Below are positions 5,981 to 14,852 of a stretch of 64,000 nt of DNA, in pieces. Position 1 is the stretch's first letter, and the number at the start of each line of letters is the position of its first letter. Below the pieces are notes generated by a model, which was not told the DNA's origin, did no database searches, and worked only from the letters and a program-made list of their open reading frames with translations. The DNA is from an uncultured Bacteroidales bacterium (GTDB taxonomy: Bacteria > Bacteroidota > Bacteroidia > Bacteroidales > FEN-979), in NCBI GenBank assembly GCA_903875045.1, contig CAIQUS010000160.1, positions 17-64,016 on the forward strand. Reading direction: 5' to 3'. The position numbers were made by a program, and so were the translations under genes.

Positions 5981-8776
5981 TTAAACAATCTGAAACTCAT
6001 GTTCGGCGCAATGCAGTCTGCACGAGCCGTTTGCATGTTCGCAGGTGCATTTTCCCAGCGCCTTTTCCACGATGAGTTTTTGCTGGATCTTATGGAGGCG
6101 TGAGGAACCTGTTGCCGGGCTGCCACTGGCCGGCCGGGCAGTGTGATGCAGGAATGGCATGGCAAAGTGCTGGTCAAAAACCATATTCTGCGTGATAAAT
6201 TTCCATGCGCCCATGTTCACAGGTTCTTCCTGTACCCATTCCCAGTGTTTGGTGTGGGAATATTTGGCGAAAATCTGTTGAAGTTGCTGCAAGGGAAGTG
6301 GATAAAGCTGTTCAAGCCGGATAATGGCTACATCTTCCTTTTGCTGCTTCTCCCTCTCTTCCAGAATGTCGTAATAAACCTTGCCTGAACAAAGTACCAC
6401 CCGTTGGATCTTTGAAGGGTCAACCGTTGCATCATCAATAACTTCGTGAAATCCGCCGGTGGTAAACTCTTCAACTGATGAAACACAACGTGGATGGCGG
6501 AGCAGGCTTTTGGGGGTAAATACCACAAGCGGTTTACGGAATGGCCAGTAGAGCTGTCGGCGCAATACATGAAAAAAATTGGCCGGGGTGGAACAGTTCA
6601 CGATCTGCATATTGTGATGGCCGCACAAAGAAAGAAATCGTTCAATCCTTGCCGAAGAGTGCTCCGGTCCCTGGCCTTCATAACCATGGGGCAACAGCAA
6701 TACAGCACCATTCATCACTTTCCATTTGTCTTCTGCACTGCTGATATACTGATCGATCACAATCTGGGCCCCATTGTTGAAGTCACCAAACTGCGCTTCC
6801 CAAACTGTTAAAGCGTTGGGGGTGGAATAGGCATAGCCATATTCAAAGCCAAGCACGCCATATTCCGATAACAGTGAATTGTAAATGCTCAGTTTAGCCT
6901 GGCTTGCTGAAATATGTTCCAGCGGGATGAATTTCTCCTCCGAATCTTCTACCGTGAGCACGGCATGGCGGTGGCTGAAAGTGCCGCGCTGCACATCCTG
7001 TCCGCTCAGCCTTACCGGATGGCCTTCTGTGAGGAGGGAACCGTAGGCGATCAGTTCGCCCATGGCCCAGTCAAGTTTGTCAGCTTCGAGCATGGCTTTC
7101 CGGTCATCCTGCATTTTGATGATTTTCCGGAAAAATATTTTCCCTTCTGGCAATGCAGTTAGTTTACGGGCAATTTCACGCAAGGTCGATTCTGAAATGG
7201 CCGTTACGGGGGAAGTTTGAAAATCGGCAGGAGTGGCTTTTCGCAAACCGTCCCATTGTTTTCCAAGGAAGGATGAAATGTCGCCCTTGATGATGGTTTT
7301 CGCTTCATCGAAGCCATAATCAAGTTTGGTGTTGATTTCAGATTTAATTCCTGCAACATCAATGGATGAAAGTGTGGCTTCCTCTTCAAGCTTTTTCAGG
7401 TAGATCTCCAGCGGATCAGGGTGTTGCTCGATTATTTTATAAAGGATTGGCTGGGTAAACCGGGGTTCGTCACTTTCGTTATGCCCGTATTTTCTGTATC
7501 CGAGGAGGTCGATGAAAATATCTTTATGAAATTTAGCCCTGAATTCCATGGCAAGCCTGACAGTGTATACCACTGCCTCGACATCATCGGCATTCACATG
7601 GAAAATGGGTGACTGAATGGTCTTTGCCACATCGGTGCAATACACACTCGACCGGCCATCGAGGTAATTGGTGGTAAACCCGATCTGGTTGTTTACCACC
7701 AGATGAATGGTCCCTCCTGTCTTGTAACCTTCCAGATCGGCCATCTGGATAAGTTCATAGATAATGCCCTGCCCCGAAATGGAGGCATCACCATGGATGA
7801 GGATCGCAGCAACTTTGTCATTGTTCCCGCCATGGGCATGGTCAATTTTGGCCCTGGAAATGCCTTCAACCACCGGATCAACGGTTTCGAGATGTGATGG
7901 ATTGGGAGCCAGGGTGAGATGTACTTTTTTCCCGGTATGTGAAATGATCTCATTTGAGTACCCCAGGTGGTATTTCACATCGCCAAGCAGGTCATCATCC
8001 TCATACTCTTTCCCTTCAAATTCAGAGAAAATTTGTGTGAAAGGTTTGTGCATGATGTTCCCAAGTACGTTCAACCGTCCGCGATGGGCCATGCCAAGCA
8101 CAAACTCATCGATGCCAAGGTCGGCACCTTGTTGGATCACTGCTTCCAGTGCCGGGATCAGCGATTCAACTCCTTCAAGTGAAAAGCTTTTCTGCCCCGG
8201 GAATTTCTTATGGATGAATTTTTCAAAGAGAACACCTTCGGCTAATTTACGGAGGATAATCGTTTTATCGTCGAGTGAAAAGGAAGGGGTGTTTTGCCGG
8301 GGCTCCATTTTCTCCTTAAACCATTCAACAATTTCCGGTCTCCTGATGTAGTGGTACTCAACCCCAACCGACTGACAATAGGTTTTTTGTAAATGGGAAA
8401 CGATTTCCGACAGTTTTGCACTTCCCAGGCCAAGCTCTTTTCCCGCCTGAAATGTTTTCTGCAAATCGTCCTGGGCAAGTCCGAAATTTTCAATATCCAG
8501 CGTGGGTGAATATTTACGGCGGGTTCGCACCGGATTGGTTTTGGTAAACAAGTGCCCCCTTGAACGGTATCCATTGATCAGGTTGATCACCTTAAATTCA
8601 TTGGGGACTACATACGCATTGCCCTGGTCGGTCTTGAAATTTGTCTGGCAAAATTCAAAACCTTCAAAAAACTTTTGCCAGCTCTCATCAACAGAGGCTG
8701 GATCCTGTTTGTATTCTTCGTATAACCCATCTATGACAGAGTGGTCGGGTTGATTCAAATAGTTGAATTTATCCAT
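5981..8776 (-). CDS. sucA: 2-oxoglutarate dehydrogenase E1 component
   Basis: 931 aa, colinear with SucA/OdhA: N-terminal YLNQPDHSVIDGLYEEYKQDP, RGHLFTKTNP, a TPP-binding region GDASISGQG, and HGYEGQGPEHSSARIERFL. Confidence 0.92.
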   Translation of the reverse strand: MDKFNYLNQPDHSVIDGLYEEYKQDPASVDESWQKFFEGFEFCQTNFKTDQGNAYVVPNEFKVINLINGYRSRGHLFTKTNPVRTRRKYSPTLDIENFGLAQDDLQKTFQAGKELGLGSAKLSEIVSHLQKTYCQSVGVEYHYIRRPEIVEWFKEKMEPRQNTPSFSLDDKTIILRKLAEGVLFEKFIHKKFPGQKSFSLEGVESLIPALEAVIQQGADLGIDEFVLGMAHRGRLNVLGNIMHKPFTQIFSEFEGKEYEDDDLLGDVKYHLGYSNEIISHTGKKVHLTLAPNPSHLETVDPVVEGISRAKIDHAHGGNNDKVAAILIHGDASISGQGIIYELIQMADLEGYKTGGTIHLVVNNQIGFTTNYLDGRSSVYCTDVAKTIQSPIFHVNADDVEAVVYTVRLAMEFRAKFHKDIFIDLLGYRKYGHNESDEPRFTQPILYKIIEQHPDPLEIYLKKLEEEATLSSIDVAGIKSEINTKLDYGFDEAKTIIKGDISSFLGKQWDGLRKATPADFQTSPVTAISESTLREIARKLTALPEGKIFFRKIIKMQDDRKAMLEADKLDWAMGELIAYGSLLTEGHPVRLSGQDVQRGTFSHRHAVLTVEDSEEKFIPLEHISASQAKLSIYNSLLSEYGVLGFEYGYAYSTPNALTVWEAQFGDFNNGAQIVIDQYISSAEDKWKVMNGAVLLLPHGYEGQGPEHSSARIERFLSLCGHHNMQIVNCSTPANFFHVLRRQLYWPFRKPLVVFTPKSLLRHPRCVSSVEEFTTGGFHEVIDDATVDPSKIQRVVLCSGKVYYDILEEREKQQKEDVAIIRLEQLYPLPLQQLQQIFAKYSHTKHWEWVQEEPVNMGAWKFITQNMVFDQHFAMPFLHHTARPASGSPATGSSRLHKIQQKLIVEKALGKCTCEHANGSCRLHCAEHEFQIV

Positions 8777-8800
8777 TTCCTGGGATTATCATTTCAGCGT

Positions 8801-8808
8801 CAAATATA
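8801..8808 (-). promoter_or_regulatory. Candidate -7 box TATATTTG for sucA-sucB(-nadB)
   Basis: The plus-strand text caaatata is TATATTTG on the minus strand, 25 nt upstream of the sucA ATG (8776). Confidence 0.35.
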
Positions 8809-8864
8809 CTCATAATTGAATAATTGAGAATGTGATGCAATAGAGAAACCGTTTAAATTATCTG

Positions 8865-8872
8865 TATTTTTG
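8865..8872 (+). promoter_or_regulatory. Candidate -7 box TATTTTTG for the M20 peptidase gene
   Basis: Matches TAnnTTTG 58 nt upstream of the ATG at 8930. Confidence 0.3.
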
Positions 8873-8929
8873 CACCAAAGTTGGATGTTAATTTCATTAC
8901 ATAAATTATTCACTCGAAAAACTATACAC

Positions 8930-10315
8930 ATGGAACACGTTAAACTATACATTGATGAGCACAAAGACAGGTTTTTAGAGGAACTCTTTGGATTGATCCG
9001 GATACCATCCATCAGTTCGTCTGTTGAACATAAGGAGGACATGATCAAGGCAGCTGAATATTGGAAGAAATCGCTTCGTGAGGCCGGTTGTGACAGAAGT
9101 GAACTTTTTTCCACAGATGGGAATCCGATTGTATTTGGTGAGAAAATCATTGACCCATCATTACCAACCGTTTTGGTTTATGGCCATTATGATGTAATGC
9201 CTGTTGATCCGGTTGAATTGTGGGAATCCAAGCCTTTCAAACCGGAAGTGCGCAATGGCAGGATTTATGCCCGCGGTGCCGATGATGATAAAGGGCAGGC
9301 ATTTATGCATGCGAAAGCTTTTGAACTGATGGTTCGCACCAATACCCTGCCATGTAATGTCAAATTCATGATTGAGGGTGAAGAGGAAGTGGGCTCCATG
9401 AACATCGCCCCTTTTTGCCTCAGGCACAAAGAGATGCTGAAATCGGATATCATCCTGGTTTCCGATACCAGTATGATTGCACTGAACACGCCATCCATTA
9501 CGGTTGGTCTCCGCGGACTGGCCTACATGCAGGTAGAGGTAACAGGACCCGGTTTTGATCTTCATTCCGGAATATTTGGTGGTGCCGTGGCAAATCCGAT
9601 CAATGCGCTCACTAAAATGATCGCTTCGCTCACCGATGAAAATGGCCGCATCACCATCCCGGGATTTTATGATGATGTGATTGAAATCTCCCGTCATGAA
9701 CGTGATGAGATGGCCAAAGCCCCGTTTGATGAGGTAAAATACAAGAAAAATCTGAATGTGGAGGAATTGTATGGAGAAGCCGGCTTCACAACCAAGGAGC
9801 GAACCGGCATCCGTCCCACACTCGATGTGAACGGTATTTGGGGTGGCTATACCTCTGAAGGGACAAAAACAGTGCTCCCGGCCAAGGCTTATGCCAAAAT
9901 TTCCATGAGGCTCGTCCCGGATCAGGATTTCGTTAAAATCGGTGAACTTTTTGAAAAACATTTTAGAACCATTGCACCCAACACGGTGAAAGTTAATGTG
10001 CAAACCCTCCATGGCGGACAAGCTTATGTATCGCCAATCGACACAATTGGTTACAAGGCTGCAAGCAAAGCCATCGAAACCGTTCTGGGTAAAAAGCCGA
10101 TTCCCGTGCGTAGCGGCGGTAGCATTCCGATCATCCCTCAATTTGAGGAAATTCTTGGCGTCAAAACTATTTTATTGGGATTTGGCCTTGAATCGGATGC
10201 TTGTCATTCCCCCAATGAGAATTATCCACTTGATAACTTTTACAAAGGAATTGAGACCATCCCTTATTTCTACAAATTTTTTACCGGGATGTGGAAGGAG
10301 AAACAACAATCCTGA
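8930..10315 (+). CDS. M20-family dipeptidase / metallopeptidase (ArgE/DapE/CPG2 family)
   Basis: VLVYGHYDVMPVD, ARGADDDKGQ and MIEGEEEVGS are metal-ligand motifs of peptidase M20. I prefer the start at MEHVKLY (8930) over the ORF-track start at 8870, which lies inside the promoter region. Confidence 0.85.
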   Translation: MEHVKLYIDEHKDRFLEELFGLIRIPSISSSVEHKEDMIKAAEYWKKSLREAGCDRSELFSTDGNPIVFGEKIIDPSLPTVLVYGHYDVMPVDPVELWESKPFKPEVRNGRIYARGADDDKGQAFMHAKAFELMVRTNTLPCNVKFMIEGEEEVGSMNIAPFCLRHKEMLKSDIILVSDTSMIALNTPSITVGLRGLAYMQVEVTGPGFDLHSGIFGGAVANPINALTKMIASLTDENGRITIPGFYDDVIEISRHERDEMAKAPFDEVKYKKNLNVEELYGEAGFTTKERTGIRPTLDVNGIWGGYTSEGTKTVLPAKAYAKISMRLVPDQDFVKIGELFEKHFRTIAPNTVKVNVQTLHGGQAYVSPIDTIGYKAASKAIETVLGKKPIPVRSGGSIPIIPQFEEILGVKTILLGFGLESDACHSPNENYPLDNFYKGIETIPYFYKFFTGMWKEKQQS

Positions 10316-10327
10316 TCATGATCTTGG

Positions 10328-10555
10328 GTGCCATTCTTATATCTAAATGAAAATACACGGGGTTGTAAAATTTTGACCATGAACTTAACCGAACAATACA
10401 TCCAGACCTCTCTGCCAATTAAATCAGAGTTGATAAAAATATTTTCAAAGGAATACCCGAAAGTGATTTTTGATATTGGTGCCTGCGATGGGATTGACTC
10501 CGTTAGATACAGCCGCTTGTTTGAAAGTTCAACGGTTGAATATTCCGAAAAATAA
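10328..10555 (+). pseudogene. N-terminal fragment of an FkbM-family SAM-dependent methyltransferase
   Basis: KVIFDIGACDGIDSVRYSRLF is the motif-I (DIGAxxG) region of Methyltransf_21/FkbM. The frame stops right where the FEP motif is expected, and the remainder of the domain resumes at 14153. Confidence 0.6.
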
Positions 10556-10601
10556 CTGTTTCGTCCCGATTATTGACGCAATTCAGAATGACTTATTTTT
10601 T

Positions 10602-10632
10602 TTGTCGCAAATAGTTACTAAATTTGCGACAA
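10602..10632. promoter_or_regulatory. Perfect 11-bp inverted repeat TTGTCGCAAAT-n9-ATTTGCGACAA overlapping a TAAATTTG -7 box (10619..10626); candidate AbiEi autoregulatory operator/promoter
   Basis: Arms read directly at 10602-10612 and 10622-10632. The -7 box ends 22 nt before the abiEi ATG (10649). Confidence 0.5.
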
Positions 10633-10648
10633 GATAAAAACAAACATA

Positions 10649-11245
10649 ATGTCAAATAGTATTGAATATCAGTTATTAGAAAAGACAAAGCGAAGCCATA
10701 GAGGTACACTTTTCTTCGTGGAAAGTTTTTCCAAAATAGCCAACACTAAAGCCGTAAACAAAGCTTTAGAACGCTTAGTAATATCGGGTGAATTAGAGCG
10801 AGTTGCCACAGGTATTTATGTTCGCCCTGTTATAGATGATTACATTGGAAAAGTATTGCCCAGCATTGAAGAAATTGCCGTTGCCATTGCCAAAAGAGAC
10901 AGAGCTACGATAGTTCCAACCGGCAGCTATGCATTGTATAAATTGGGATTGACAACGCAAGTACCATTGAATATTGTTTTTTATTCCGATACTTCGGCAA
11001 GGAAAATTAAAATCGGGAAACAAACAATTACGTTTAAAAAAGCAAGTTCTAAAAACTTGTCTTTCATTGGCAAAATCAGCACATTGGCAATTCAGGCGTT
11101 ACGGACAATTGGTAAAGACCAAACAACAGCCGAAGAAATATTACAAATAAAGAAGATTTTGAAAAATGAAAACCCAAAACACCTGCAACACGATTTGCAA
11201 TTAGCACCTGTTTGGATTAGAAAATTGATTGCAACCAATGAATAA
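10649..11245 (+). CDS. abiEi: AbiEi-family type IV toxin-antitoxin antitoxin (winged-helix transcriptional regulator)
   Basis: 198 aa. It overlaps the downstream nucleotidyltransferase toxin gene by 17 nt. The N-terminal region (AVNKALERLVISGELERVATGIYVRP) is typical of AbiEi/DUF6088-type antitoxins. Confidence 0.7.
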   Translation: MSNSIEYQLLEKTKRSHRGTLFFVESFSKIANTKAVNKALERLVISGELERVATGIYVRPVIDDYIGKVLPSIEEIAVAIAKRDRATIVPTGSYALYKLGLTTQVPLNIVFYSDTSARKIKIGKQTITFKKASSKNLSFIGKISTLAIQALRTIGKDQTTAEEILQIKKILKNENPKHLQHDLQLAPVWIRKLIATNE

Positions 11246-12257
11246 GTCTATATATTTACAAGAATGGTTTCGGTTGCCCGATGAAACCAAAGTCAGATTA
11301 TTTTCTGAAACAAGCCGACAAATCGGCTTACCATCTTCATCAGCCTCAGAAAAAGATTGGTGGATAGTGCATACTTTGGCGGCAATTTTTTCAATGGAAT
11401 GTGCAAGTGCTCTCATTTTTAAAGGTGGGACATCATTGAGCAAAGGTTGGAATGTGATACAACGTTTTTCGGAAGACATTGACTTGGCGTTGGACAGAGA
11501 ATTTCTTGGTTTCACAGGTGAGTTATCTAAACAAGACATTAAAAAACTAAGAAGGAAATCATATCAGTTTATTTCGGAAGTGTTTACGGAAGAATTGAAA
11601 AATAAATTTGCACAATTGGGTTTTAAAAATATAACTGTCAAAGCCCGTGAAGTAGAAAATCACGACCAAGACCCTTTAATTATTGAAATTTATTACAACA
11701 AACTAACAGAAAAAGATACTTACTTAAAACCGGGTGTTTTGGTCGAAGTAGGCAGTCGTTCATTGAAAGAACCATTTACACAAAGAACTTTTGGTACATT
11801 CGTTTCGGAAGTTTACACAGACAATCCTTTTACGGACAAACAGATTTCTATTCCTGTTGTAAATCCCGAGCGAACATTTTTAGAAAAGATATTTTTGTTA
11901 CACGAAGAATTTCAAAAACCGTCAGATAAAATACGGGTTGAACGCCTTAGCCGACACCTTTACGATATTGAAAAATTGAACCAAACTGAATATGCAAAAA
12001 TTGCATTACAAGACGCTGAACTATACAATACTATCGTAAGACATCGAAGTAAGTTCACAGCTATTTCGGGTATTGACTACTCAAAACACAATCCTGCAAA
12101 CATAAGCATTGTTCCACCCGACACAATCATAAAAAAGTGGGAAGCAGACTACAAAGAAATGAAAGGAAGTATGCTTTACGGACAAGTTTTAAACTTTGAC
12201 GAACTCATAAACCGACTGACTGAATTACAAAAACGAATAAACAAAATCCAACACTAA
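11229..12257 (+). CDS. abiEii: AbiEii/AbiGii-family nucleotidyltransferase toxin (DUF1814)
   Basis: 342 aa with LIFKGGTSLSKGW....RFSEDIDL, the GS-x-DxD nucleotidyltransferase core of the AbiEii family. Paired with abiEi upstream. Confidence 0.8.
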   Translation: MQPMNKSIYLQEWFRLPDETKVRLFSETSRQIGLPSSSASEKDWWIVHTLAAIFSMECASALIFKGGTSLSKGWNVIQRFSEDIDLALDREFLGFTGELSKQDIKKLRRKSYQFISEVFTEELKNKFAQLGFKNITVKAREVENHDQDPLIIEIYYNKLTEKDTYLKPGVLVEVGSRSLKEPFTQRTFGTFVSEVYTDNPFTDKQISIPVVNPERTFLEKIFLLHEEFQKPSDKIRVERLSRHLYDIEKLNQTEYAKIALQDAELYNTIVRHRSKFTAISGIDYSKHNPANISIVPPDTIIKKWEADYKEMKGSMLYGQVLNFDELINRLTELQKRINKIQH

Positions 12258-12377
12258 ACGAACAAACAACAACAAATGAGAAAATAAGAACGAAGGCATA
12301 CACAGTACCCCCGGTCCCTCCCTTTTCAAGGGACGGGTTGGGGGTGGGTAGATTGACGGCCAACGTTGTTTAAAAAC

Positions 12378-14054
12378 TTAGAAGTCCCTAACGCAGCGGG
12401 CTGAGAAGGCATGCGCCTTGTTGGTGTTGTTGTACATGTAACAGGTACCACCGAAGAAGGTCAAGTCCCAACCGGATATGGCATCGACTTGGTTACTACT
12501 CCAGTAGTAGCCGGCAGTGCCTCGATTGTAAATCAAGCCATCGCTGTAGATCAGGTATCCGGCAGCATGGAGTTTTAGTGGAGAGCCGAAAGGGCCATTC
12601 CAGTCTGTCCAATTGCCACTGGCATCAACGTTAGTCCACTCCGTGCTGGTTGGAATGCGCCAGCCGGTGCCAAGTTCAATGGTGCATGGGTCGTTGGCGG
12701 TTATCCAGTTTGAACTTTCGCTAATGCTGCTAATCCACGTGGTACCGGGTATTCTTGAACTGATATATTGATACCCCTGCTTGCGGTTAAACTGGAAGTA
12801 CCAGCCTGCAGAAGCTTCAGTGGCATCAGAAACCACAGTACCCTGCTGGCTTGCGCCAAGGCTTCTGGTGATCCAGCACTTGGTAAGTTCGCCTGGCATA
12901 TTGTTAACCGTGCCATAAGTTACAGTTTTATCAACCGGAGCTACGCCGCCGGCAGCTAAATGATTGATAGTGATTGAAGCACCACAAGAAAAAGGACAAC
13001 CGGAGGTTGATTCTGTCAGTATTGCTGGTGCTGAGTTTCCACACGAACCATAAGCCCAAACATATCTTGAATAATTCGTGCTGCACGTCAGCCCGGTTTC
13101 AGCAATCTGCAAACTTGTTCCCATTTCCACCGCATTGGCAAAATTATTGGAAACACTCCATTTGTAGCCCGTGGCTCCCGTAACTGGATTCCATTTCCAT
13201 ACAATCTGAGTCGCTGATGGAATTTGGGTGCCGGCAGTCGGAGGCTCAGGGTTGTGCAATGTTGTTTGTGTCAGGATGGACGGAGCCGAACTTCCACAAC
13301 CATTATATGCCCACAAATATCTTGTATATGGGGTGTAACAGGTCATACCAGTTTCAGTTTTAGTTATTACAAGCCCTATATCAGTTGCAGTTCCAAAATC
13401 ATCGATAGTATTCCATTTATACCCTGTTGCACCAATGGATGTGTTCCAGTTCCAGGTGATCTGATTGGCTGTAGGAACATGAATACCTGGTATAGGTGAT
13501 GAAGGAAATGATAAAGTTGATTGTGTCAGGATTGTTGGGACTGAAGTGCCGCAATCAGAATATGCCCATATATACCTTGTCAACAAAGTATTACAGGTAA
13601 GTCCTGTTTCAGTCATTGATGTTACCATTCCTATGTCAGAGGAAGTCGTGTAATTATTCAAAGTATTCCACTTAAAGCCACTGGTACCAAGGCTTGTGCT
13701 CCAATTCCATGTTATTTGGCTTGGCATCGCGAAATGGGTTCCGGCAATCGGTGCCACTGAGGAACAGGGGGCATAAGTTCTCCAGGCACCGTTAGAGTAA
13801 ACACTAATGGCTCCGTTTATGCCACAGTCCGTACAAAACACCATCAAACCTTCTGCTGGACTTACAATGGCATTGCGCTGTTCAAATGATAACCGGGGAA
13901 TTAAAACCCCTTTGTTGGCAGATTTGACATCGAGCATTGCCGATGCAGCAGGGAGGTTGTTATCTTCGTTGATACTTACCTGTGCGAATAGGTAAAAAGA
14001 CGGGAGAGTTAAGAAAAATCCCAGCACGATAAAAAATTTGTAAAGGGTTTTCAT
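12378..14054 (-). CDS. Secreted FISUMP-domain protein (Fibrobacter succinogenes major paralogous domain) with three FN3-like repeats
   Basis: Signal peptide MKTLYKFFIVLGFFLTLPSFYLFAQ (start moved to M17 of the ORF). Three 85-aa repeats follow. The C-terminal WRIPTSTEWTNV...LKLHAAGY...GYYWSS...AFSARCVRD is typical of TIGR02145-type domains. Confidence 0.8.
   Translation of the reverse strand: MKTLYKFFIVLGFFLTLPSFYLFAQVSINEDNNLPAASAMLDVKSANKGVLIPRLSFEQRNAIVSPAEGLMVFCTDCGINGAISVYSNGAWRTYAPCSSVAPIAGTHFAMPSQITWNWSTSLGTSGFKWNTLNNYTTSSDIGMVTSMTETGLTCNTLLTRYIWAYSDCGTSVPTILTQSTLSFPSSPIPGIHVPTANQITWNWNTSIGATGYKWNTIDDFGTATDIGLVITKTETGMTCYTPYTRYLWAYNGCGSSAPSILTQTTLHNPEPPTAGTQIPSATQIVWKWNPVTGATGYKWSVSNNFANAVEMGTSLQIAETGLTCSTNYSRYVWAYGSCGNSAPAILTESTSGCPFSCGASITINHLAAGGVAPVDKTVTYGTVNNMPGELTKCWITRSLGASQQGTVVSDATEASAGWYFQFNRKQGYQYISSRIPGTTWISSISESSNWITANDPCTIELGTGWRIPTSTEWTNVDASGNWTDWNGPFGSPLKLHAAGYLIYSDGLIYNRGTAGYYWSSNQVDAISGWDLTFFGGTCYMYNNTNKAHAFSARCVRDF
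13005..13757 (-). repeat. Three tandem ~255-bp coding repeats (85-aa FN3-like modules)
   Basis: QITWNWSTSLGTSGFKWNT..., QITWNWNTSIGATGYKWNT... and QIVWKWNPVTGATGYKWSV... recur with an exact 85-residue period (I130, I215, I300 of the ORF-track translation). Confidence 0.8.
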
Positions 14055-14152
14055 AGGATTACGTTTTATAGTTGCAAGGGTAAAATTAAACAAAATAATC
14101 ATATAAATGGCAATCCAACATAATATTTCCTGAATTATTTTCTCGAAGGATC

Positions 14153-14824
14153 ATGGTTCATTCATTTGAACCATTGCCACACAACCATCAGCAATGTCTT
14201 GAGAATTTTGCAAAATATTCAAACGGGAAAATAGTAGCTCACCAGATAGCCCTGAGCGACAAAAACGGATTTGCAACTTTTTTTGTCTCTTCCGGAAATC
14301 CTGAAGGGGCCAACAAGGAGGAATGGGATTTTGGCAACAAGTCAAGTTCATTGTATCCTCCTGATCCGACCTTTAAAAAGGCTGAATGGTTGGCATTCAA
14401 TGAACAAATTGAGGTGAAAACTCAAACGATCGCCTCCTTTTGTAAAGAAAATGCGATCAATAAAATTGATTTCATCCATCTTGATGTACAAGGAGCCGAA
14501 TTGGATGTGTTAAAAGGTGCAGGGGCTTTTCTCAATACCGTGTGTGGTATCTGGCTTGAAGTTGAAAACGTTTCAATGTATCAGGGACAGCCGCTTAAAA
14601 ATGAAATTGAGACTTTTATGAAGAGAGCAAATTTCTTTAAAGCAAAGGATATGGCTTTTGATGATTATGGAGATCAGTTGTATCTGAATGCATCATTCTA
14701 CTCCAGATACAAATGGTTTGTGGTAAAAAACATTGCAATCAGCCGACTCATAACCTTATACACAACGATCATCCCTTTAGAACTGCGCAGAATCCTCAAG
14801 CTAAAGCAAAGACTAAGTAGTTGA
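14153..14824 (+). pseudogene. C-terminal ~220-aa fragment of the FkbM-family methyltransferase
   Basis: It begins MVHSFEPLPHNHQQCLENF (the post-motif-I FEP motif), followed by ALSDKNGFATFFVS and IDFIHLDVQGAELDVLKGA, typical of FkbM. The frame is open back to 14108 without a plausible N-terminus. Confidence 0.65.
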
Positions 14825-14852
14825 TATGTTTTCCGTTACTTTGGTTTCAGGA

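Follow-up and report, generated by a model that had tools for sequence, protein, structure and literature searches.

How does a toxin–antitoxin module with no visible recombinase come to lie inside a methyltransferase gene? The question is raised by a stretch of 64,000 nucleotides from an uncultured Bacteroidales bacterium (contig CAIQUS010000160.1 of assembly GCA_903875045.1, positions 17 to 64,016; hereafter the window), in which two fragments of an FkbM-type methyltransferase gene flank an AbiEi/AbiEii type IV toxin–antitoxin (TA) pair and, on the opposite strand, the gene for a secreted FISUMP-like protein. A preliminary description made from the nucleotide sequence alone had presented this arrangement as a recombinase-less island. 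Here we compare the locus with an intact orthologue of the methyltransferase gene and with related AbiE loci in other genomes (designated L and a number below). The favoured answer, to which we assign a probability of roughly 60%, is that FkbM was inactivated by a 3,617-bp fragment of a donor locus, consisting of a truncated transposon and a FISUMP-like gene and probably captured in one step.

A single methyltransferase gene interrupted without loss of sequence

A scan for open reading frames (ORFs) returned a 75-residue ORF at 10328-10555, ORFs at 10649-11245 and 11229-12257, a 574-residue ORF on the minus strand at 12378-14102 and a 223-residue ORF at 14153-14824, all where the preliminary description had placed them. 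The 223-residue ORF matches PF05050 over profile positions 26-171 of 173 (E 1.7e-21; 77.5 bits against a cut-off of 22.7) and TIGR01444 (79.9 bits against 37.7). The 75-residue ORF has no Pfam match of its own in a profile search; by tblastn it is 86% identical to residues 1-35 of the protein P0002, and in the alignment to P0002 this N-terminal fragment supplies the missing first ~25 positions of the PF05050 profile. P0002 is an intact orthologue of 257 residues, 83% identical, retrieved with a query in which the N- and C-terminal fragments were joined. The same query matched many full-length homologues (57-63% identical, 93-97% query coverage). The ORF at 10328-10555 is made up of the FkbM 5' fragment, an upstream GTG and read-through into a transposase remnant described below. 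The true start of FkbM is probably the ATG at 10379, judging from homologues that begin MN.F..YI.

P0002 is encoded on L001, a contig of a Bacteroidetes metagenome-assembled genome (MAG), at the same syntenic position as the window gene. The gene order there is 2-oxoglutarate dehydrogenase E1 (sucA), M20 peptidase and FkbM, with FG-GAP and DsbD genes further on, and the neighbours are as in the window. By blastn, L001 1779-1940 corresponds to window 10376-10537 (81.5% over 162 nt) and L001 1937-2599 to window 14155-14817 (81.3%). This comparison fixes the borders of the insert at 10538 and 14154. At base level, the left junction reads ACGGTT / GAATATT and the right junction GATCAT / GGTTCATTC; they map to L001 positions 1940 and 1937, and the sequence GGTT, which is single in the orthologue, is present at both junctions in the window. 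No base of FkbM is missing: when 10538-14158 is removed, joining 10537 to 14159, an open in-frame ORF of 274 residues results. As the window stands, no continuous ORF holds both the S-adenosylmethionine (SAM) motif I and the remaining part of the fold, the halves being 3,617 bp apart, and we interpret FkbM as a split pseudogene that is otherwise free of disabling mutations.

Flanking core genes are 74-83% identical to L001, and because the fragments and these genes are similarly diverged from it, both fragments belong to one resident gene. The preliminary description's proposal of one gene split by insertion, into complementary halves of one domain, is therefore borne out by the orthologue alignment. 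Its further idea, that two paralogous methyltransferase genes had recombined, is refuted, as is the reading of the fragments as two separate genes. All that speaks for either is a superficial V-x-x-S-E-K resemblance between the fragments, whereas the fragments are exactly complementary and in frame, abut without loss, are equally diverged from one orthologue (as given above) and have no second FkbM gene beside them in the window. The resemblance itself (TVEYSEK against VHSFEP) is present in the sequence, but it is not the decayed target duplication that had been suggested as the other explanation: the string is accounted for because TV comes from FkbM and the EYSEK preceding the stop codon is the conserved C-terminus of a transposase.

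An assembly error does not explain the arrangement. Independent assemblies of other samples (L002-L004, 99.97-100% identical) contain the right-hand junction with the FkbM 3' fragment, and on the left side the order M20, DUF6088 is seen again in L050 and on a 12.5-kb contig.

Two further features of the locus concern the 3' fragment and its surroundings. The right junction creates an ATG at 14153, preceded by GAAGGA, and the 223-residue C-terminal fragment of FkbM keeps an open frame with a plausible predicted start. Immediately downstream, L001 2665-6428 stands against window 14825-14852, a second indel polymorphism at the same spot: L001 has four extra genes between FkbM and FG-GAP (a TPR protein, a DUF4143 fragment, a response regulator and a 229-residue ORF), while in the window only 28 nt separate the FkbM stop codon from the FG-GAP gene.

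The insert is a composite of a transposon remnant and a foreign gene

The insert contains no transposase or integrase gene, in line with the preliminary description. No integrase was seen among the ORFs examined around it, the window holds no tRNA gene as an integration target, and neither a second copy of the insert nor a trace of a transposase was found elsewhere in the window. Scans for promoter and terminator consensus sequences gave counts at or below shuffle expectation. The base composition is divided. The AbiE part has a GC content of 0.353, lower than every 1.7-kb background window (minimum 0.376), and a tetranucleotide distance ~7.5 standard deviations above background, which substantiates an earlier impression, gained by eye, that it was AT-rich. 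The FISUMP-like part has a GC content of 0.458 against a window mean of 0.44. Together with the homologies described below, we interpret the insert as a composite of a transposon-derived left part (10538-12304, 1.77 kb) and a right part (12305-14154, 1.85 kb) that comprises a FISUMP-like gene and its own upstream region (Table 1).

Table 1. Features of the interrupted FkbM locus (window coordinates).
Feature	Position	Strand	Description and evidence
FkbM 5' fragment	10379..10537	+	codons 1-53, SAM motif I (IFDIGACDG); blastn to L001, tblastn to P0002
GGTT, left copy	10534..10537		4-bp sequence at both junctions (right copy 14155-14158); base-level three-way comparison
Transposase 3' end	10538..10555	+	last 18 nt (E-Y-S-E-K-stop), truncation point; comparison of C-termini with other loci
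Putative operator/promoter region of AbiE operon	10602..10632		palindrome TTGTCGCAAAT-N9-ATTTGCGACAA; inverted repeat I9
AbiEi-type antitoxin/autorepressor (DUF6088)	10649..11245	+	PF19570 2.3e-65; PADLOC AbiEi 1.5e-66
AbiEii nucleotidyltransferase toxin	11229..12257	+	PF08843 3.7e-33; PADLOC AbiEii 2.7e-101
Right terminal inverted repeat (IRR)	12287..12304		AGAACGAAGGCATACACA; matches AGAACGAGGCATAAC(A); end of transposon-derived part
3' flank of FISUMP-like gene	12305..12377		imperfect G+C-rich hairpin ~12308-12345; donor DNA outside transposon
Secreted FISUMP-like protein	12378..14102	-	longest ORF 574 residues; three ~85-residue tandem repeats
Upstream region of FISUMP-like gene	14103..14154		right end of insert; L047 homology stops ~12 nt before junction
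FkbM 3' fragment	14155..14824	+	begins with right GGTT copy 14155-14158; blastn to L001, PF05050

The origin of the left part is betrayed by the first few codons of the insert. Just after the left junction the window reads GAATATTCCGAAAAATAA, which translates as E-Y-S-E-K-stop. In L005, L008 and L010, an ORF of ~820-897 residues lies directly upstream of the AbiE operator and ends in LKSGEKSIYEYSEK followed by the stop codon in L005 and L008, and in SIYQYSEK-stop in L010. The C-terminus KSIYEYSEK-stop is found in L005, L006, L007 and L008 (as 3' remnants in L006 and L007), with a DYSEN-stop variant in L012, and in all of these loci (L005-L008, L010 and L012) the transposase C-terminus lies directly upstream of the operator. 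The 897-residue protein matches the TM0106 RecB-like nuclease family (TIGR03491, 5e-54), including Cas4-like and RNase_H_2 domains, and the IS66 DDE domain (PF03050, 3.9e-29; NF033517, 180.8 bits against a cut-off of 180). The IS66 DDE transposase is present in L010, L005 and L008 (the nuclease-IS66 fusion lies at L010:2400-5093, L005:298-2982 and L008:550-3240), whereas the window retains only the last 18 nt of the gene.

These three loci also define the ends of the element. Their mutual homology spans 4.4 kb and halts at GTTATGCCTCATTCT on the left (the left inverted repeat, IRL) and at AGAACGAGGCATAAC on the right (the right inverted repeat, IRR), and in each of them IRR is the reverse complement of IRL apart from one mismatch (14 of 15 nt match). 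The layout is IRL, the 897-residue fusion transposase, AbiEi, AbiEii and IRR. A diverged IRL/IRR pair is carried by L007. Homology between genomes stops at IRR in L005, L008, L010, L012 and L017, and the extra A at the IRR of the window is common to L006, L008 and L012. The window copy has IRR only, internal to the insert, with IRL and the transposase lost. By these comparisons of sequence, the left part of the insert is a 5'-truncated copy of an IS66-type transposon of ~4.4 kb, and the earlier designation of the island as recombinase-less does not hold for its origin: 18 nt of a transposase gene and one inverted repeat are still there. Canonical IS66 elements generate an 8-bp target duplication. 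No direct repeat flanks the inverted repeats in L005, L007, L008 or L010, in which the termini are uncertain by 1-3 nt.

Truncation of this element is not peculiar to the window. Transposase remnants of 73, 78 and 38 residues are found in L017, L012 and L006, L007 has an internal deletion between both inverted repeats, and many AbiE loci have no transposase remnant at all. Since the remnants differ in length and AbiE is kept, the transposase has been lost repeatedly.

The right part of the insert has a separate pedigree. Homology to other AbiE loci ends at 12258-12309, and the nearest full-length homologue of the FISUMP-like protein, encoded on L047 (72% amino acid identity), shares with the window only 12372-14142, that is, the gene and ~88 nt upstream. 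There is no AbiE module near the L047 homologue, and none of the other loci examined links the FISUMP-like gene to AbiE. The preliminary description had treated the three genes as a cassette that might recur elsewhere; this does not stand, because AbiE occurs in 42 other genomes and never with an FkbM fragment or a FISUMP-like gene. An opposite-strand gene for a secreted protein is present as described, but its FISUMP label is weak: the protein scores 22 bits against PF09603 (cut-off 33.9) and 20.1 bits against TIGR02145 (cut-off 41.65), and the sub-threshold match is confined to the C-terminal ~60-95 residues. Its family, made up of secreted proteins with repeats, is very large in the Bacteroidota; most of the homologues have PF26696 and some PF09603. 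Elsewhere the gene is called from a start at 14054, giving 558 residues. Within it, 13258-13463 and 13513-13718 form a repeat with 68% DNA identity and an ITWNWN...GYKWN motif, and several public assemblies break within this gene.

Probable capture of a donor fragment at a staggered break

How did the two parts arrive together? The transposon's own machinery did not make this insertion, because IRR is found within the insert rather than at its end and the left end falls in the transposase gene. Most likely, as we infer it, the fragment entered FkbM in one illegitimate insertion event, at a staggered break of 4 nt. At a donor locus, the transposon would earlier have inserted just downstream of the FISUMP-like gene, in convergent orientation. 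A 3.6-kb piece consisting of the 3' part of the transposon and the FISUMP-like gene would then have been excised or copied at arbitrary points, the left cut falling 18 nt before the transposase stop codon and removing IRL and the transposase. Illegitimate or microhomology-type joining of this linear fragment into a 4-nt staggered break in FkbM would produce the GGTT duplication.

The same composite could in principle have been assembled within FkbM, if a complete transposon had inserted at GGTT, IRL and the transposase had later been deleted, and the FISUMP-like segment had been inserted or translocated between IRR and the FkbM 3' fragment. Loci that have independently lost the transposase but kept AbiE are common (L006, L007, L012, L017 and the many loci without a remnant), and breaks exactly at the tips of the inverted repeats are what transposase cleavage would produce. 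This course of events, however, calls for two rearrangements after the insertion, both of which would have to end on their outer side precisely where the transposon had entered, without removing any base of FkbM, and the copies with two inverted repeats show no target duplication, certainly none of 4 bp. It is less parsimonious than capture in one step, and we regard it as unlikely.

The ends of the insert bear on two other routes. The first would make the whole 3.6-kb unit a non-autonomous element of the mobile insertion cassette type, mobilised by a transposase acting in trans on cryptic ends with a 4-bp target duplication. The duplicated GGTT would fit such an element, as would the weak inverted similarity that a gapped alignment shows for the terminal ~20 nt (best uncorrected P 0.004-0.04 over 16 configurations). 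This similarity, however, is not significant after correction and is not found with a stricter score, both arms are inherited, and a second copy is absent from the window and from the look-ups. We judge this explanation to be quite improbable. The absence of clear terminal repeats had already been remarked upon, and our searches agree: neither inverted nor direct terminal repeats of any significance mark the ends of the insert, where strict local alignment performs no better than shuffles. The best values of the permissive end-anchored alignment are those quoted above, and the candidate repeats were rejected; the weak similarity arises because the arms are inherited, the left from the transposase 3' end and the right from the FISUMP upstream region common to L047. 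A search for insert ends resembling IRL or IRR, as in ISEcp1-style use of a surrogate end, gave nothing above shuffles except the 10-nt match TTATTTTCTC, which was reached in 6 of 500 shuffles and sits in the FISUMP upstream region common to L047; this candidate was also set aside.

In the second route, a circular cassette would have been inserted site-specifically at a GTT core, in the manner of an integron or a tyrosine recombinase. The left junction GTTGAAT fits GTTRRRY, and ATCCAAC (RYYYAAC) lies 36 nt before the right junction. A search for an attC-like structure was negative, however, the reconstructed circular joint folding no better than shuffles on either strand (z = 0.0 and 0.4); a truncated transposon together with a gene and its own upstream region is unlike the content of a cassette, and the survey of surrounding ORFs described above showed no integrase. 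This possibility is largely refuted.

Several points weigh against capture of a donor fragment as we have reconstructed it. An empty-site allele from the same species was not found, and the nearest intact gene is only 83% identical. The donor configuration, with IRR adjoining this FISUMP-like gene, was found nowhere, and exact-protein look-ups returned this locus alone. A 4-bp duplication is also expected from a transposase or another enzyme that makes staggered cuts, so that the event may have been enzyme-mediated. The parent element is taken to be a transposon solely from its inverted repeats and homology breakpoints, with no target duplication in the four copies that have both repeats. The function of AbiE, finally, is predicted solely from family membership.

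The AbiE module and its operator

In AbiE and MenT systems, AbiEi represses its own operon and neutralises AbiEii, a nucleotidyltransferase toxin that arrests growth. The pair in the window is overlapping, as had been stated, with profile and PADLOC matches to both partners. AbiEii scores 115.9 bits against PF08843 (cut-off 22.5), and a GGT...EDIDL motif is visible in the translation. Against the NCBIfam AbiEi equivalog, the antitoxin reaches 25 bits, far under the cut-off of 150. AbiEii is called from the ATG at 11238 (339 residues) in other assemblies, and the overlap with AbiEi is 8-17 nt. No sequence match to a solved structure was found for AbiEi, AbiEii or the FISUMP-like protein, and exact-protein look-ups for a second locus with an identical AbiEi or AbiEii gave this locus alone.

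The palindrome upstream of AbiEi is kept in 52 of 61 sources. In L019, L027, L028, L036 and L040, G>A and C>T changes occur symmetrically in both arms, as expected for the site of a dimeric repressor. A second operator-like palindrome (TTTCGTCCCAAAT...GGGACGAA) is found upstream of the main operator in L019 (~7290-7335) and L023 (upstream of 7333), and the window keeps a single half-site of it, GTTTCGTCCC (10557-10585). By analogy with its family, the conserved palindrome would be where AbiEi represses the operon, and AbiEii would provide addiction and/or abortive-infection defence, which would also favour retention of the insert. The operon looks intact, and the AbiE module is what appears to remain functional of the insert.

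AbiE relatives across the Bacteroidota

A scan of species-representative genomes for AbiEii returned 42 loci in other genomes, spanning Bacteroidales, Flavobacteriaceae, Chitinophagaceae, Sphingobacteriales, Cyclobacteriaceae, Saprospiria-type taxa and others. They are 66-85% identical to the window at the DNA level, over ~10597-12258 only. In a few AbiE loci homology extends left to 10537 (blastn alignments to L006 and L008 begin there) or right to 12309. The AbiEii proteins are 80-88% identical across Bacteroidota. The family numbers 1,670 clusters (90% identity, E < 1e-100), most of them from short contigs, and its contexts are varied and of a mobile or defence character, such as beside a reverse transcriptase and PIF1 helicase or in a hot spot rich in IS91, IS4 and introns. 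The closest relatives of AbiEii (88% identity; L051:1484-5338, L052 and L053) lie directly 3' of genes for a PIF1-type helicase, a 147-residue ORF, a 368-residue reverse transcriptase (RVT_1) and a 226-residue ORF, which looks like a defence-island context. In L059-L066, eight metagenome contigs, identical AbiE pairs follow the same ABC-transporter operon; beyond position 7020 the downstream DNA is different each time, with an IS91/Y2 transposase and integrase, IS4-type transposases, a group II intron reverse transcriptase and mer genes, and this region is a rearrangement hot spot.

Other copies of the element were seen in settings of their own. The direct repeats at L010:1-2376 and 7980-10355 (2.4 kb, 97.5% identical) surround the AbiE transposon and a DUF4349 gene and contain an IS30-like transposase and a NarE-like gene; repeats and transposon may form a larger composite structure. 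The truncated elements at L006:7239-9161, from a Lutibacter (Flavobacteriaceae) MAG, and L012:7236-9153, from a Chitinophagaceae MAG, share 93% DNA identity that includes ~75 nt beyond IRR, which suggests a recent transfer between families of an already truncated copy with flanking DNA. Outside the Bacteroidota, the fusion architecture is found at 35-37% identity on cyanobacterial plasmids (Acaryochloris, Calothrix), where it is annotated 'TM0106 family RecB-like putative nuclease' or 'transposase IS66, putative'. No description of this element was found in the literature on IS66 elements with passenger or TA genes, AbiEii in transposons, IS66 with Cas4, or DUF6088.

Significance of the locus

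The event in the window is of an ordinary class, the disruption of a gene by the remnant of a mobile element, and the absence of a visible recombinase need not signify a new insertion mechanism. It offers a worked example of how a defence or addiction module becomes an apparently orphan islet inside a housekeeping-type gene, while all that is left of its mobile carrier is one inverted repeat and the last 18 nt of a transposase gene, traces that are easily missed. Loss of the FkbM methyltransferase may, speculatively, change a methylated glycan or surface structure of the lineage. The parent transposon, although outside the window, is the more interesting by-product; it seems to have carried AbiE, at 80-88% protein identity, into many families of the Bacteroidota. 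We tentatively suggest, while holding it somewhat more doubtful than not, that the remnant in the window derives from a transposon family not yet described and widespread in the Bacteroidota, in which a fusion of TM0106 RecB/Cas4-like nuclease, RNase-H-like and IS66 DDE domains carries AbiE as a fixed cargo. AbiE would repeatedly outlive the transposase, the element having lost its 5' part independently and to differing extents in at least five genomes, and would then be passed on with flanking DNA. If true, this would explain the origin and persistence of 'recombinase-less' AbiE islets.

Comparison with known systems

The parent element resembles the IS66 family, in particular its single-ORF, ISBst12-like and passenger-gene members, in having an IS66 DDE domain (PF03050, with NF033517 at the cut-off), short terminal inverted repeats at the ends of homology, and genes unrelated to transposition between the transposase and IRR. 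It differs in that one protein of 897 residues unites the transposase with a full-length TM0106/RecB-Cas4-like nuclease and an RNase-H-like domain, in that it has no tnpA/tnpB accessory ORFs, and in that the 8-bp duplication was undetected in four copies; the window, moreover, holds only an immobile 3' remnant. Of the related loci, L007 resembles a mobile insertion cassette, with both inverted repeats, AbiE as cargo and an internally deleted transposase, whereas the window copy has only IRR, in an internal position, and the ends of its insert are not inverted repeats. An integron gene cassette differs in the folding of its recombination site, the reconstructed joint of the window folding no better than shuffles.

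As in the AbiE systems of Streptococcus agalactiae (AbiEi-AbiEii) and mycobacteria (MenA-MenT), the pair in the window is bicistronic and overlapping, with the antitoxin preceding a predicted PF08843 nucleotidyltransferase toxin, strong PADLOC matches to AbiEi and AbiEii, and an upstream palindromic putative operator. The antitoxin differs in being of the DUF6088 branch (25 against 150 bits at NCBIfam AbiEi). The insertion as a whole is most readily compared with the illegitimate capture of DNA at double-strand breaks by microhomology or fill-in. No donor locus was found for the event as reconstructed here. The ends of the putatively captured fragment are likewise arbitrary, one lying in a gene and the other in an upstream region, and the FkbM target likewise shows a short 4-bp duplication with no bases lost.

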